This document shows positions 60,542 to 63,766 of a stretch of DNA of 64,000 nucleotides, in pieces. The number at the start of each line of letters is the position of its first letter. Within the stretch, counting starts at the first letter, position 1. The notes below the pieces were generated by a model. It was not told where the DNA came from, did not search any database, and saw only the letters and a program-made list of their open reading frames with translations. The stretch is from a virus. Lineage: Duplodnaviria > Heunggongvirae > Uroviricota > Caudoviricetes. The translations under genes and the position numbers were made by a program. The stretch lies in IMG/VR virus record IMGVR_UViG_2778260992_000001; one strand, 5' to 3'.

Positions 60542-60690
60542 TTCCATACATCTCATTGGCTTTTATGGCTGGCTTCCTTATCGGCTTCGGCATCTGTCGT
60601 GATTTGATTAAGCAGGAACTTAAAACCAAAACACTGTGCATCGGGAAGCGTGTGTATCGGGTAGTTCATGAAACAAAGGTGAGAACATGA
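60538..60690 (+). CDS. hypothetical small membrane protein (50 aa)
   Basis: Manually read ORF with hydrophobic N-terminus ISLAFMAGFLIGFGI; coupled to neighbours. Confidence 0.3.
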   Translation: MIPYISLAFMAGFLIGFGICRDLIKQELKTKTLCIGKRVYRVVHETKVRT

Positions 60691-60977
60691 GCAATTTAAC
60701 TTCTTGGGACTGGTGGTTGGTACACTATTTCTTAGCGGCCGGAGTCGCATTCGCCTTTTACGTAGGTCAGTTAGTCGTAAAACTGTTGCTGATTAAATTT
60801 GCTAGTCATAAACGTATCGATGATGGTCTGTGGCGTCTTGGCACCCTGGTGGAAACTCGCTACGGGCAACTTAAGGAGAACGAAACCATTACTATCCAAG
60901 CGAAACGATTCACTGCCACCATCACAAGAACACCTAGTCGTAGAGTGGCCTTGATCAAAAAAGTCACAACCGAATAA
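60687..60977 (+). CDS. hypothetical membrane protein
   Basis: N-terminal TM WWLVHYFLAAGVAFAFYVG. Confidence 0.45.
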   Translation: MSNLTSWDWWLVHYFLAAGVAFAFYVGQLVVKLLLIKFASHKRIDDGLWRLGTLVETRYGQLKENETITIQAKRFTATITRTPSRRVALIKKVTTE

Positions 60978-60986
60978 AAACATATC

Positions 60987-61008
60987 GATAAGTATTTACT
61001 TACTTATC
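60987..61008. promoter_or_regulatory. class-2 palindrome
   Basis: GATAAGTATTTACTTACTTATC (8-bp arms). Confidence 0.5.
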
Positions 61009-61152
61009 TTTTGTGTATAAGATGACTTTGTTTTCGTTGAGACGCGACTGTTTGAACTTAAATACAAGTGCAAACGAAGAAGTCTATCTGGCAGTAGCCT
61101 AATAAGCCAAACACCAGCGAGGTCAGTTTCCAGCCTCGTTACCGAAATGGGA

Positions 61153-61500
61153 CACACTGAGCGAGTGTGATTGCAGAACGCAGGAGGGAACATGAGTGTT
61201 CCCTCCGATGAAGTAACAGAATGGGCGGTCGGTATATTTTCAACTCCATATGACTCCCGGATTCTTAGCCACTGACCGCCCATCCTGTTACGTCATTTTG
61301 TTCAATTATGTCGTTTATACTGGGTTAAAAAGCGGCGACGTAGCCCGGCTGGTATGGTTAGCCAGCACACAACGTTGAGGCCATTACATTTTTATCAATT
61401 CTAAGGTTCTATTCACAGAGATACCGGCGAGCGTTGATATGTAACATGTTGGGCAAACATTCAATCGGAGTAGTGGCCTCAACGTTGTGAAGACAGGATT
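61153..61500 (+). ncRNA. candidate structured RNA region (strand and function unknown)
   Basis: Nested perfect stems at 61183-61206, 61215-61230/61274-61289 and 61368-61382/61475-61489 in an ORF-free stretch. Confidence 0.35.
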
Positions 61501-61753
61501 GTTGTGTAGGTTTAACCACTGTTGCCATTGGTGCCTGTTTTCACAACAAATGATTCCATACATCACATTATATAAATTACAAAGTAGGTGCTGTCCTCAG
61601 AAACATCATCTACTTAAAGATTTAGCCTTCTATTGAGCGAAGTCGAAAGCGTCTGGCACTAACGAAAAGTGCAAGTAGCGGTGCGTTTCCTGGCAGAAAC
61701 TAACACCGCCGCGATTGGCACTGTTGAGTAATAAATACTGTCAGTGCTGAATT

Positions 61754-61828
61754 GATGGTGTAGCTCAGCGGTAGAGCAGTTGGCTGTTAACCAACTGGTC
61801 GGTGGTTCGAATCCACCCACCATCGCCA
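61754..61828 (+). tRNA. tRNA-Asn (GUU)
   Basis: Manual cloverleaf: 7-bp acceptor GATGGTG/CACCATC, anticodon loop CTGTTAA, T-loop GGTTCGAATCC, 3' CCA; differs from E. coli tRNA-Asn. Confidence 0.8.
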
Positions 61829-61833
61829 ATTTA

Positions 61834-61920
61834 GGGGAGTTAGTCCGTAGAGGTAGCGGTGTAGACTGTAAATCTACTGTCATGGCGACTCGGGTGGTTC
61901 GACTCCATCACTCCCCACCA
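61834..61920 (+). tRNA. tRNA-Tyr (GUA), class II
   Basis: Acceptor GGGGAGT/ACTCCCC, anticodon stem-loop GTAGA-CTGTAAA-TCTAC, long variable arm, 3' CCA. Confidence 0.75.
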
Positions 61921-61924
61921 AATT

Positions 61925-62000
61925 GCCGGTTTAGCTCAGTTGGTAGAGCAGTCGCTTTGTAAGCGAATGGCCAGCGGTTCGAGTCCGTTAACCGGCACCA
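61925..62000 (+). tRNA. tRNA-Thr (UGU)
   Basis: Acceptor GCCGGTT/AACCGGC, D-arm GCTC..GAGC, anticodon loop TTTGTAA, T-loop TTCGAGT, CCA; one G-A mismatch at top of anticodon stem. Confidence 0.65.
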
Positions 62001-62224
62001 ATACAACGATAAGATCATTACGGTTAATCGTCGTTCATGTGCACAATGACTGGTCGAAAGGTAGTGATCTTACCGTTGTGGTGGATTCGCAGACTGATGC
62101 GATAGCTTTCTTGGATGTTAGGGAAATGCGGCCGCAAATCTTCCCTTTCGCGAGCGGTGATCGTCCGTAGTCCTAATTGGCTGCACCGTATGCCGGAGAT
62201 TCAGTACCGGCCACCACAACGGCC

Positions 62225-62311
62225 GGAGAGTAGGGAGCATGGTGCTCAAGCGGTCTTGAAAACCGTCCCATTGCGCAAGCGATGATGGTTCGATTCCATT
62301 ACTCTCCGCCA
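62225..62311 (+). tRNA. tRNA-Ser (UGA), class II (D-arm irregular)
   Basis: Acceptor GGAGAGT/ACTCTCC, anticodon stem-loop GCGGT-CTTGAAA-ACCGT, long variable arm, T-arm GATGG-TTCGATT-CCATT, CCA. Confidence 0.6.
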
Positions 62312-62313
62312 GA

Positions 62314-62391
62314 CACAGCGTTGAGCGGTTTGGCCTTTTAATCAACTCGATTAAGACTCCGCTAACATAAACCAGACCGCTCAACGCTGTG
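62314..62391. repeat. 16-bp perfect inverted repeat CACAGCGTTGAGCGGT / ACCGCTCAACGCTGTG
   Basis: Starts 3 nt after tRNA-Ser; arm sequence resembles the 61368/61475 inverted repeat. Confidence 0.7.
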
Positions 62392-62465
62392 ATAGACAAT
62401 TACGGCAGACGTTCTTAACCATAGCTTGCTAACATCCTAGCAACACTTTTTTCAGCGCAAAATTC

Positions 62466-62488
62466 AAAGGGGCTTCGGCCCCTTTTTT
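62466..62488. terminator. bidirectional rho-independent terminator GGGGC-TTCG-GCCCC plus T6
   Basis: Terminates rightward tRNA transcript; also lies just past stop of leftward gene 62504..63766. Confidence 0.8.
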
Positions 62489-62503
62489 GTTGAACAGTGC
62501 AAT

Positions 62504-63766
62504 TTACTTTACATAGTCGCCCAGTTTTAATATTTCGCGCTTATATTCTTTAACCATGCTACTGGATTCAGTATAAATTCGATTTAAAAGATTATCGCTA
62601 TCTTTATTCTCATTTATCTTAATGAGTGATAATTTAAATTCATAGTCATCAAATGCCACAATCAAATGGTGGCCTGGGATTATATCTTCGTCACTCTTGA
62701 AGTATATATCTTCAAGTATGTAATCTAGTTGATTATATTTTCTTTTCTCGATGTAATCTTCAGCCATAGCTATTACATCATTCCTGTCATTTAACCTGTT
62801 TTTTTCGGAAGGCACATCTTCGTAATGTTGCACGATTGAACAACCAATAAGGCGTGGGATGTAAACGTCAAAATGAGTAACTCTATCATTCGCGGTTTTA
62901 AGTAGTTCCTCAAAGTAGTTTCTTACATGTAAAGGCAACTTCTCAAAGTAATCATTAATTATAGGAGAACAAGGAGTTTTATAATTCATAAGAACCGACG
63001 GTACGAGCTTTGGGTTTCGAAACATCCAGTCCCTTTTAACGTCCGATGGAACATAATAACTTTTAATGATATTATCAAAATAATTTATCATTCGAGATTT
63101 GAATATTTTGTTGAATCTAAGGTTTATGAATGCATCCAGATAAGGCATATCTGAATAAGCATCATCAAAAAATATTTCATCATTGAAAAAATCATATTTA
63201 TTCAATAAACAACACAGTTTTCCCGAATTAATATGTTCACAATAATCGATTTTTAATCCAAAGATAGCAATGATCAACTTCATCTGAGGTGGGATTTTGA
63301 AAATTAATTGTGACACATACGCTCTTTTTTCCTTTAGACATTCCCCATCAATATAAAATGAACTATCCACATACTCAAAAATATTAATAATATGCTTCAC
63401 ATACTGTATTACCTCATGCTGTTTTACCAATGGGTAATATAGTCTATGTAACTCATCGCTGTTTAAATTAACTTTGCGTTTATCGATAATTTGTTTTGCA
63501 AGAAGACATAGCTCATCATGTTGATTTAATAAGGAATCAAACCATTGTTTAAATGCACTCTTTCGCATTTCGAACAATGATTCTGTTGTTAATTGAAGGG
63601 CTGAAAAAGCTGCTTTTGCACTTTTTCTCGCTTCGTAGGCATTCCATGCTGTTGCTATAAAAGCAAATGCTGTAGCCAATGTTCCAACAATTTGACCATT
63701 TAAAACAACCCAATCCCAAAAAATCACGGTGAGCAGTAGTATAATAATGAAAATTAAAAAAGGCAT
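62504..63766 (-). CDS. AT-rich membrane-anchored protein of unknown function (420 aa)
   Basis: Two N-terminal TM helices then about 340-aa soluble domain; very AT-rich codon usage unlike flanking DNA; no recombinase or NTPase motifs seen. Confidence 0.6.
   Translation of the reverse strand: MPFLIFIIILLLTVIFWDWVVLNGQIVGTLATAFAFIATAWNAYEARKSAKAAFSALQLTTESLFEMRKSAFKQWFDSLLNQHDELCLLAKQIIDKRKVNLNSDELHRLYYPLVKQHEVIQYVKHIINIFEYVDSSFYIDGECLKEKRAYVSQLIFKIPPQMKLIIAIFGLKIDYCEHINSGKLCCLLNKYDFFNDEIFFDDAYSDMPYLDAFINLRFNKIFKSRMINYFDNIIKSYYVPSDVKRDWMFRNPKLVPSVLMNYKTPCSPIINDYFEKLPLHVRNYFEELLKTANDRVTHFDVYIPRLIGCSIVQHYEDVPSEKNRLNDRNDVIAMAEDYIEKRKYNQLDYILEDIYFKSDEDIIPGHHLIVAFDDYEFKLSLIKINENKDSDNLLNRIYTESSSMVKEYKREILKLGDYVK

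Follow-up and report, generated by a model that had tools for sequence, protein, structure and literature searches.

A predicted RNA gene of about 340 nt with its own promoter-like site lies at 61030-61367, on the + strand, of a 64,000-nucleotide stretch of DNA from a virus of the Caudoviricetes (IMG/VR record IMGVR_UViG_2778260992_000001; this whole stretch is hereafter the window, and all coordinates count from its first letter). Its core (61030-61181) has, by comparison of sequences, the architecture of transfer-messenger RNA (tmRNA): GUUUUCGU at the 5' end, then a hairpin, an A-rich context with AUA, a start-less reading frame that opens with GCA and two covarying pseudoknots. This RNA retains the mRNA-like half of tmRNA, namely the start-less GCA tag frame, a stop codon within a helix and two H-type pseudoknots, and is without acceptor stem, T-arm and CCA. 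It appears to be the first product of a phage stable-RNA operon (60995-62493, + strand), in which the promoter-like site and the tmRNA-derived RNA would be followed in order by hairpin modules, tRNAs for Asn, Tyr and Thr, a hairpin, a tRNA-like module, tRNA-Ser, a further hairpin and a terminator. The conserved structured RNAs and the tRNAs all share one orientation and a terminator-like site closes the array at 62466-62493; the array would be transcribed as one or a few RNAs and processed into stable RNAs. We classify the first RNA as a tmRNA-derived RNA without tRNA-like domain, set within a modular collection of phage stable-RNA elements; the explanation as a whole, including the decoding and processing steps proposed below, is one that we hold with slightly more confidence than doubt.

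The window's RNA region is 100% identical to that of the Escherichia coli plasmid NZ_AP017612 (pMRY16-002_2) and ~98% identical to that of Escherichia phages CMS-2020a and Cyrano, a group of SSU5-like phage-plasmids; the noncoding stretch upstream of the tRNAs retains 78-80% identity in Salmonella phage SSU5, Yersinia pestis pMT1 and plasmids of Klebsiella and Enterobacter. An earlier, sequence-only reading of the window had described about 0.6 kb upstream of the tRNAs, counted from 61153, as structured and free of credible open reading frames (ORFs). Both properties stand: the Prokaryotic Genome Annotation Pipeline (PGAP) annotates nothing in NZ_AP017612 between a 96-aa ORF (window 60687-60977) and tRNA-Asn, and every reading frame of the noncoding stretch is broken by 1-2 nt indels among close relatives. 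That reading did miss that most of the region is one conserved RNA gene with a tmRNA-like tag-coding core, and that this gene starts further upstream, at 61030. The core came to light in a distant BLAST search with 60980-61753, which matched SSU5-like replicons and also, in hundreds of unrelated enterobacterial phages, a ~110-nt piece (~61018-61172) that was always unannotated. Loci or lineages of relatives used in the comparisons below carry labels such as L015, L024, L162 and L169.

The tag frame, located by alignment at 61070-61105 (+ strand), reads GCA AAC GAA GAA GTC TAT CTG GCA GTA GCC TAA TAA and would encode ANEEVYLAVA followed by two stops; it has neither a start codon nor a Shine-Dalgarno sequence, and from GCA to the first TAA it spans 61070-61102. 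Copies were gathered from IMG/VR in two ways, by a tag-based pattern and by a tag-independent anchor in the conserved sequence downstream, and together with the phage and plasmid loci amount to more than 100 distinct copies. Their tag peptides fall into 15 distinct 10-residue forms (A-N/K-D/E/S-D/E/N/T/A-x-Y/F-L-A-V/A-A). Entropy summed over the first, second and third codon positions is 2.7, 3.3 and 7.6 bits, respectively; synonymous changes (AAC/AAT, GTA/GTG, GCA/GCC/GCT and GCC/GCT/GCG) were seen in an anchor-independent scan, replacements are conservative (D/E, Y/F), and TAA, TAG and TGA are all used as stops. The third-position variation, the conservative replacements and the three interchangeable stops argue that the frame is decoded: as judged from this pattern of substitution, it evolves as a translated sequence under coding-type selection. 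An alternative small ORF in an overlapping AUG/GUG/CUG frame (AUG/GUG-CAA-ACG...UAG) was rejected, its start and its stop both being unconserved.

The context of the resume codon is conserved as well, with A at -6, -4 and -3 in all 109 distinct copies and U at -5 in 94 of the 109, the window copy having C instead of U at -5; in E. coli tmRNA, A-U-A precedes the resume codon at -6 to -4. Upstream, the 5' part of the RNA (61030-61069, + strand, by alignment) comprises GUUUUCGU (61030-37), GCGAC (61044-48), a small hairpin and the A-rich AAUACAAGU before the resume codon. GUUUUCG is retained in nearly every family, and G2 and T3-T5 are formally invariant in an alignment of 18 representatives. The spacing from this motif to the resume codon varies from 40 to 60 nt in non-multiples of three, so that 61030-61069 is non-coding and the frame cannot extend upstream. 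One IMG/VR contig, L162, represents the only lineage in which GUUUUCAU replaces the 5' GUUUUCGU, and its tag, ANSDQYLAVA, is unusual as well; a host tmRNA sequence complementary to this variant motif would be AUGAAAAC.

The promoter-like site at 60995-61023 (+ strand), read from the sequence, consists of TTTACT (60995-61000), a 17-nt spacer and TAAGAT (61018-61023). It is kept in SSU5- and L015-type relatives, and Felix-O1-like phages have an equivalent TTGACA-N17-TAAGAT/TATAGT at an equal distance from GTTTTCG. Because the promoter-like hexamers end 6-7 nt upstream of GUUUUCGU, this motif is predicted to form the 5' end of the transcript, with the start at or beside the G of GUUUUCG.

Downstream of the tag frame, the invariant GCYAAACACCAG stands ahead of the two H-type pseudoknots, both of which are supported by covariation. 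The segment 61106-61152 (+ strand) begins with the invariant GCCAAACACCAG and continues into pseudoknot a, whose stem 1 pairs CGAGG (61118-22) with CCTCG (61134-38) and whose loop UUCCA (61128-32) pairs with UGGGA (61148-52). Seven sequence variants of stem 1 occur, every one of them paired, and the loop covaries with the downstream strand (CCGA/TCGG, CCAG/CTGG, CCAA/TTGG, TTCCA/TGGAA, CTCCA/TGGAG). Pseudoknot b (61153-61181, + strand) has a stem 1 of CACAC (61153-57) and GTGTG (61165-69), paired in all of its eight variants, and a loop GCG (61161-63) that pairs with CGC (61179-81); this second stem is an invariant 3 bp in the SSU5 lineage and covaries in other lineages (GCCC/GGGC, GCCCAC/GTGGGC, GCCCTGA/TCAGGGC, GGCGGGAG/CTCCCGCC). 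A simple upstream hairpin occupies the place of tmRNA pseudoknot PK1, and there is no PK4.

The remainder of the RNA is structured throughout. Hairpin I17 (GGAGGGAACA / TGTTCCCTCC; 61183-61206, + strand), found by repeat search, keeps five pairs via two-sided changes in seven representative relatives. It is followed by the long hairpin I1 (61208-61296, + strand), in which compensatory pairs are found, for example AACGAGA/TCTCGTT in L015 vs AACAGAA/TCCTGTT in the window; its loop varies by lineage, and the T-loop-like TTCAACTCC is present only in the lineage of the window. The 3' part (61297-61367, + strand, by alignment) contains a conserved helix, predicted to form between segments TTATGTCGTT and GGCGACGTAG, and a terminal hairpin, GCTGG (61348-52)/CCAGC (61362-66), followed by ACA; in the L024 lineage CTGG/CCAG of this hairpin is changed in a compensatory manner to CTGA/TCAG. 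RNAalifold, applied to seven SSU5-lineage representatives, predicts 72 pairs, 11 of which are kept via two-sided changes; an exhaustive scan for covariation between any two columns of the SSU5-type alignment was discarded, being swamped by phylogenetic structure. In the most divergent (L015-type) relatives an ORF begins right after the point corresponding to 61367, which delimits a unit of ~340 nt.

The element is confined, as far as a strict pattern detects it, to phages and plasmids of Enterobacterales. It lies inside a tRNA array in Felix-O1-like phages, between pR'/qut and the late terminator (tQ) in HK620, upstream of tRNA-Ser in Klebsiella phage Carvaje, and in a 1-kb leader between Q and holin in a prophage of Shiga toxin-producing E. 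coli (STEC) O26. Among 5426 complete E. coli genomes, 350 (~6%) carry it, on 141 chromosomes and 219 plasmids, and it is never annotated. Application of the strict pattern to 185,579 species-representative genomes gave mostly chance matches, and the genuine ones were confined to Buttiauxella, Kluyvera and Pseudocitrobacter. Carriers of the element include well-studied replicons: Y. pestis pMT1, plasmids of the Salmonella Typhi pHCM2 type, HK620, the Felix-O1-like therapeutic phages and STEC O26 prophages.

No counterpart of the tRNA-like half of tmRNA was detected. A search with ARAGORN was negative for tmRNA in the window, at 14 representative and seven Felix-type loci and throughout the other 45 kb of NZ_AP017612, the reference plasmid, and Rfam finds no tRNA-like domain beside the tmRNA-like copies or in that plasmid. 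The element itself has no acceptor stem with G3.U70, no T-arm and no 3' (A)CCA end. A regular expression for T-loops and NCCA ends matches nothing but normal tRNAs, among them the tRNA-Ala of Felix-type arrays; CTCCACCA-type ends near copies are likewise those of ordinary tRNA-Ala genes and are confined to these arrays. Several candidates for the domain were rejected. The 'T-loop' of the I1 loop is lineage-specific; the terminal hairpin GCUGG/CCAGC with its 'CCA' fails as an acceptor end because CCA becomes UCA, with a compensatory change of the partner, in L024; and the module at 62073-62222 has U-A as its 3:70 pair and no conserved CCA. A permuted two-piece tmRNA, with the upstream hairpin of lambdoid copies as acceptor stem, is contradicted by SSU5- and Felix-type copies, which have a promoter in that place, and by some lambdoid copies with a terminator directly upstream.

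A covariance-model scan, which the sequence-only reading had proposed, was run with Rfam 15; both at gathering scores and at E <= 10 it returned only tRNAs and weak matches to tmRNA families, and no riboswitch, ribozyme, GOLLD, ROOL or true YrlA. All of the sub-threshold matches are to tmRNA families, with the tag region aligned in register. In Citrobacter phage Michonne (L003), an unannotated tRNA-like gene of ~130 nt, not called by ARAGORN, is located ~240-360 nt past the point where the tag begins. Its T-arm (GUAGGUUCGACUCCUAC) is canonical, the 3' strand of its acceptor stem reads CUUGACU, the discriminator is G and CCA is encoded, but D and anticodon arms could not be recognised.

Accordingly, the element fails the defining test of the tmRNA family and, as far as architecture, context and frame evolution can tell, shares the coding half of tmRNA. 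In common with one-piece and two-piece tmRNA (SsrA) it has a start-less tag whose first codon is GCA, for alanine, an A-rich stretch ahead of the tag in which AUA occupies -6 to -4, a stop codon within a helix and H-type pseudoknots thereafter. Its tags (ANDEQF/ANDNQY...A) resemble the natural E. coli tmRNA tag ANDENYALAA and also ANDEQYALAA, another natural tmRNA tag, and its 5' GUUUUCGU..GACUUUGCG resembles nt 13-31 of tmRNA (GGAUUCGAC..GAUUUGCG). It differs from tmRNA in having no acceptor stem, G3.U70, T-arm or CCA, either in cis or elsewhere on the replicon, in having two pseudoknots rather than four, with a hairpin replacing PK1, and in a tag that ends in LAVA; it differs from permuted tmRNA in having a promoter or a hairpin, rather than an acceptor piece, upstream.

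No description of the element was found in the literature on phage tmRNA-like, ssrA-like and tRNA-cluster RNAs, and neither a published tmRNA survey nor ARAGORN, PGAP or Rfam 15 picks it up. That 2014 survey of RefSeq viruses and plasmids reported ssrA only in eight mycobacteriophages and named, outside the RefSeq dataset, Bacillus phage G and mycobacteriophage DS6A, the latter with a tRNA-like domain only (PMC4131195); a 2025 update of the tmRNA database has no addition similar to the element (PMC11915505). In DS6A the tRNA-like domain is kept and the coding part has been lost (PMC4131195; PMC11915505). The DS6A molecule is also a phage-borne partial tmRNA, of which the element is the mirror image, with the coding part kept and the tRNA-like domain absent.

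The inverted repeats flagged by the sequence-only reading are the stems of a conserved, strand-specific family of long-stem hairpins (LSH) of ~20 bp. Both quoted pairs can be read directly, CACAACGTTGAGGCC (61368-61382) with GGCCTCAACGTTGTG (61475-61489) and CACAGCGTTGAGCGGT (62314-62329) with ACCGCTCAACGCTGTG (62376-62391), and a repeat search stretches them to 20-nt arms of 95% complementarity, I3 (arms 61368-87/61470-89) and I4 (62314-33/62372-91). It also reveals pairs that had been overlooked, I1 (61208-33/61271-96, 26-nt arms), I2 (61998-62021/62061-84, 24-nt arms) and a perfect 12-bp pair (62073-84/62211-22) that encloses 126 nt and bounds a separate conserved tRNA-like module. All four hairpins are far more stable than dinucleotide shuffles of their sequences (fold-energy z of -7.3 for I1, -4.8 for I2, -6.8 for I3 and -9.8 for I4; 0 of 200 shuffles as stable in each case), and their duplexes of 26, 24, 20 and 20 bp, respectively, with 83-95% complementarity, attain the length of about two helical turns (>= ~20 bp) of an RNase III stem.

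Three of these hairpins, all on the + strand, are mutually homologous, with 5' arms (CA)CAAC-G/A-..-CAUUAC and 3' arms GUAGUG-..-GUUGUG: I2 (61998-62084, 39-nt cargo), which begins within the CCA of tRNA-Thr, I3 (61368-61489, 20-bp stem, 82-nt cargo) and I4 (62314-62391, 20-bp stem, 38-nt cargo), which starts 2 nt past the CCA of tRNA-Ser. In SSU5-like replicons the LSH occupy three fixed slots and their arms differ by lineage with pairing preserved; thus the arms of I3 are GGCCATTAC/GTAGTGGCC in the window, GACCACTGG/CCAGTGGTC in Klebsiella types and GATCACTG/CAGTGATC in L024, and the I4 variants CAGCGTTGAGCGG/CCGCTCAACGCTG and CAGCGCTGAACGG/CCGTTCAGCGCTG both pair intact. Further arm changes are GGCC/GGCC, GACC/GGTC and GATC/GATC; ATTAC/GTAGT and ACTGG/CCAGT; and CGTTGAGCGG/CCGCTCAACG and CGCTGAACGG/CCGTTCAGCG. 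Conserved U.G pairs identify the + strand, which is that of the tRNAs, as the folding strand. The cargo varies in sequence and in length (37-82 nt) and in some cases includes a T-arm-like hairpin.

The suggestions of a structured RNA and of a small repeated element family were therefore both apt: stems are conserved across genera, with compensatory changes among the SSU5-like phage-plasmids of Escherichia, Salmonella, Klebsiella and Yersinia, and relatives of the stems occur as hairpins after tRNAs in P7 and D6 and as hairpins flanking the tmRNA-like core in lambdoid phages. Both P7 and D6 have a homologue of I2, CACAACAGGTAAGGGCATT...AGTGCTCTTACCGTTGTG, directly after tRNA-Thr. In P7 (L005, AF503408), the interval ~1600-2260 between tRNA-Thr and terB/tciA holds an unannotated tRNA-Ser(TGA), the same tRNA-like module as in the window and three long-stem hairpins; the array of D6 (L006) is as in P7, and the cargo of its first hairpin holds a T-arm.

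The positions of the LSH make it plausible that they are RNA processing sites, as the sequence-only reading had offered among its options. Of 128 LSH detected in 139 loci, 59 begin 0-4 nt after the 3' end of a tRNA (Asn, Ser or Thr); 64 lack an upstream tRNA within range. Among the latter, the slot-A copies (I3, for example) come after the hairpin that ends the tmRNA-like RNA, the 3' context of which (GCCAGCA|CACAAC) resembles that of tRNA-Ser (CCA-GA|CACAGC). Most likely, we infer, the LSH are trailers for double-strand (RNase III-type) processing or for protection of 3' ends. Stems cut by RNase III in rRNA operons (the stalks) and in T7 early mRNA are near-perfect duplexes of ~20 bp that flank or trail stable RNAs and leave a hairpin at the 3' end. 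LSH are likewise near-perfect ~20-bp duplexes that trail stable RNAs; they differ in that their arm sequence is conserved across phages and their internal cargo is variable. The regular placement of a ~20-bp hairpin immediately 3' to the CCA of phage tRNAs is a conserved rule, which bears on the maturation of these tRNAs and on their exchange between genomes.

Other structured RNAs are known near phage tRNA genes, with which they are probably co-transcribed: the T4 species 1 and 2 RNAs (rnaC/rnaD), GOLLD and ROOL. The RNAs of the window are similarly co-located and probably co-transcribed with phage tRNA genes, whereas no sequence or Rfam relationship to these RNAs was found (no GOLLD or ROOL match at E <= 10) and the array of the window is modular and tag-coding. 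The bacterial Y RNA-like YrlA also combines a long terminal stem with a variable, possibly tRNA-like module, whereas its sole match (15 bits, E = 9.8) falls on tRNA-Tyr/tRNA-Thr rather than on the hairpins, and no Rsr-binding motif was recognised in the array.

In a second type of module the polarity is reversed (GUUGUG...CACAAC), and the module overlaps the hairpin ahead of it in that hairpin's 3' arm, as at 61484-61547 and 62073-62222. The class-2 hairpin I10 (GUUGUGAAGACAGG / CCUGUUUUCACAAC; 61484-61547, + strand, by repeat search) has its first six bases in common with the 3' arm of I3, and P7 and D6 have an analogous unit, GUUGUGAUGAAG...CUUCACAAC. The tRNA-like class-2 module at 62073-62222 (+ strand; repeat search and comparison) consists of a closing stem CCGTTGTGGTGG/CCACCACAACGG, a first hairpin TCGCAGACTGATGCGA, a variable middle and a T-arm-like hairpin GCCGG-AGATTCAGTA-CCGGC that adjoins the 3' strand of the closing stem. 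This module is 97.5% identical in P7 and D6 and ~75% identical in Klebsiella siphophages; among 17 distinct versions of 93-235 nt the T-arm-like hairpin covaries (GTCGG/CCGAC, GCAGG/CCTGC), and no CCA is conserved. A block at 62063-62334 is 95.6-97.5% identical to P7 and D6, with unrelated flanks. Both of its ends fall within LSH arms (the 3' arm of I2 and the 5' arm of I4), so that the arms coincide with mosaic joints, which suggests that tRNA modules have been exchanged at the arms between SSU5-like and P1-like phage-plasmids.

These observations also bear on readings of the repeats other than as processing stems. They might be elements that act at the DNA level, for example miniature mobile repeats or recombination sites that shuffle tRNA cassettes, with no RNA function of their own. 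Such a role would fit an arm sequence (CACAACGTTGAG...) common within and between phages, and a P7/D6-shared block that starts and ends inside arms, but the stems change by compensatory substitution whereas the cargo changes freely, the conserved U.G pairs would be A.C mismatches on the opposite strand, and the hairpin positions are fixed relative to the 3' ends of RNAs. Nor is there dispersal of the miniature inverted-repeat transposable element (MITE), enterobacterial repetitive intergenic consensus (ERIC) or repetitive extragenic palindromic (REP) type: the 12-mer shared by the arms (CACARCGTTGAG) has exact matches in the 64-kb window only in four arms, with two mismatches it matches 16 times vs 9.5 expected, and no target-site duplications were seen. 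We judge a DNA-level role decidedly unlikely. Transcription attenuation or termination that tunes tRNA expression, a possibility raised by the stability of the hairpins, by their placement in a transcribed leader and between tRNAs and by the location of the lambdoid array in the Q-antiterminated late leader, is very unlikely, given that no U tract follows any of I1-I4, unlike in an intrinsic terminator (a GC-rich hairpin with a U tract), that a scan calls only 62466-62485 and, weakly, 62087-62102, and that hairpins with 38-82 nt of cargo are not terminator-like. Least probable, and disfavoured, is that the region consists of tRNA and tmRNA genes that have decayed and now lack function; decayed tRNA genes had also been considered in the sequence-only reading. 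T-arm-like sequences in the cargo (GGGTTCGAGTCCC in Carvaje, GGGTTCGAATCCC in D6) and in the I1 loop of the window (TTCAACTCC) are what such decay might leave behind; against it, the region is 75-80% conserved between genera and present across unrelated phage families, stems undergo compensatory change, the tag frame is under purifying selection, a 20-bp stem is not a feature of tRNA, and neither ARAGORN nor Rfam (E <= 10) finds a tRNA or tRNA-clan match outside the four tRNA genes.

For the tmRNA-derived RNA, we propose that the tag frame could be read through trans-translation, the tRNA-like domain being provided in trans, most likely by the tmRNA-SmpB machinery of the host, in which case the resulting tags would end in LAVA rather than ALAA. 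The LSH duplexes of ~20 bp would release and stabilise the individual RNAs as processing or 3'-protecting trailers, and their shared CACAAC/GUUGUG ends might also act as joints for the exchange of modules between phages. A more specific form of this proposal, which we put forward only tentatively, is a 'headless' tmRNA: a module of coding sequence and pseudoknots that would be loaded onto stalled ribosomes via a borrowed host tRNA-like domain and SmpB, so that in infected or plasmid-carrying cells the rescue tag would end in ...LAVA instead of ...YALAA, while the flanking LSH and tRNA-like modules would constitute an exchangeable, previously unrecognised stable-RNA toolkit. Docking could make use of the invariant 5' GUUUUCGU..GCGAC, to which E. 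coli ssrA has complementary sequence on either side of its resume codon (nt 86-107), and this is offered as a lead only. In lineage L169 the complementarity amounts to 14 perfect bp, and RNAduplex places the best site of the 5' end on the host ssrA in the resume/tag region in six of ten lineages; the resemblance of the 5' motif to nt 13-31 of tmRNA itself means that simple descent could explain it.

Several points weigh against these proposals. No known route decodes a tag frame without a tRNA-like domain, which leaves the central mechanistic step unsupported. No tmRNA family (RF00023 and clan CL00001, or RF04321 for permuted tmRNA) reaches the Rfam gathering score; the best match, to RF04321 in Michonne, attains 29.8-29.9 bits vs a threshold of 47, part of this score stems from the T-arm of an adjacent tRNA-Ile, and the window reaches 14 bits. 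Comparison with E. coli ssrA by an nhmmer profile yields 3.1 bits, within the range of shuffled controls, though the tags are in register. In the window the duplex of the 5' end with ssrA is no better than shuffles (-13.3 vs -13.5 kcal/mol), and the complementarity would presumably be mismatched to the Salmonella tag sequence, yet Salmonella phages retain the motif. The promoter-like site matches 8 of 12 consensus positions and a consensus scan made no call there, no expression data were found for the element, cleavage of the LSH by RNase III is pure inference, and LSH arm sequence is conserved beyond what a simple duplex requires.

The main rival to these proposals is an untranslated RNA. The tmRNA-like RNA might be a decoy or inhibitor that, by mimicry of the mRNA-like domain and pseudoknots of host tmRNA, titrates a binding partner (SmpB, ribosomal protein S1 or RNase R), or its 5' end might block or redirect host trans-translation by pairing with the tag region of host tmRNA. 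The lack of a tRNA-like domain and the ssrA complementarity, perfect over those 14 bp in L169, are in keeping with this, and so is the published converse, in that a molecule similar to the tmRNA of DS6A, reduced to its tRNA-like domain, inhibits tmRNA (PMC4131195). A pure decoy, however, leaves the third-position bias, the interchange of three stops and the conservative replacements unexplained, and the energy of the duplex with ssrA in the window is no better than that of shuffles; we consider this alternative unlikely. By definition tmRNA combines a tRNA half with an mRNA half; a natural RNA that is widespread, has a selectively maintained tag frame and lacks the tRNA half needs explaining, whether by a new way to deliver a tag template to ribosomes (as a hybrid with host tmRNA or by a new loading route) or by a new way in which viruses interfere with ribosome rescue and the quality control of proteins. 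Standard annotation tools do not detect the element, which is short and amenable to genetics.

The remainder of the array and its surroundings are as follows. The four tRNAs after the noncoding stretch, correctly recognised by the sequence-only reading, are tRNA-Asn(GTT) at 61754-61828, tRNA-Tyr(GTA) at 61834-61920 and tRNA-Thr(TGT) at 61925-62000, all called by ARAGORN and Rfam, and tRNA-Ser(TGA) at 62225-62311, called by ARAGORN, each on the + strand. The intrinsic-terminator-like hairpin with a T run at 62466-62493 (+ strand, from the terminator scan) is the likely end of the RNA operon. Directly upstream of tRNA-Asn, a spacer of ~200 nt (61545-61753) is restricted to the E. coli lineage of these plasmids and holds hairpins GCGGTG/CACCGC and GCACTG/CAGTGC and an imperfect 12-nt direct repeat, GCGTCTGGCACT / GCGATTGGCACT.

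The 96-aa ORF upstream of the promoter (60687-60977, + strand) has no Pfam match, and in many plasmids PGAP names it 'C-type natriuretic protein', which looks like a propagated mis-annotation; the label was rejected for the RNA region because it belongs to this ORF. Directly downstream of the RNA operon, on the - strand, an AT-rich ORF of 420 aa (62504-63766) with a hydrophobic N-terminus has no Pfam or PADLOC match, and at its site in the reference plasmid PGAP gives a shorter hypothetical protein of 298 aa; it is probably an accessory gene specific to this lineage, within a variable hotspot beside the tRNAs. Elsewhere in NZ_AP017612 (83928-84251) PGAP annotates a 'ClpX C4-type zinc finger protein', perhaps of interest because tmRNA-type tags mark proteins for degradation, whose presence in the window is unconfirmed, the mapped coordinates having no open frame.

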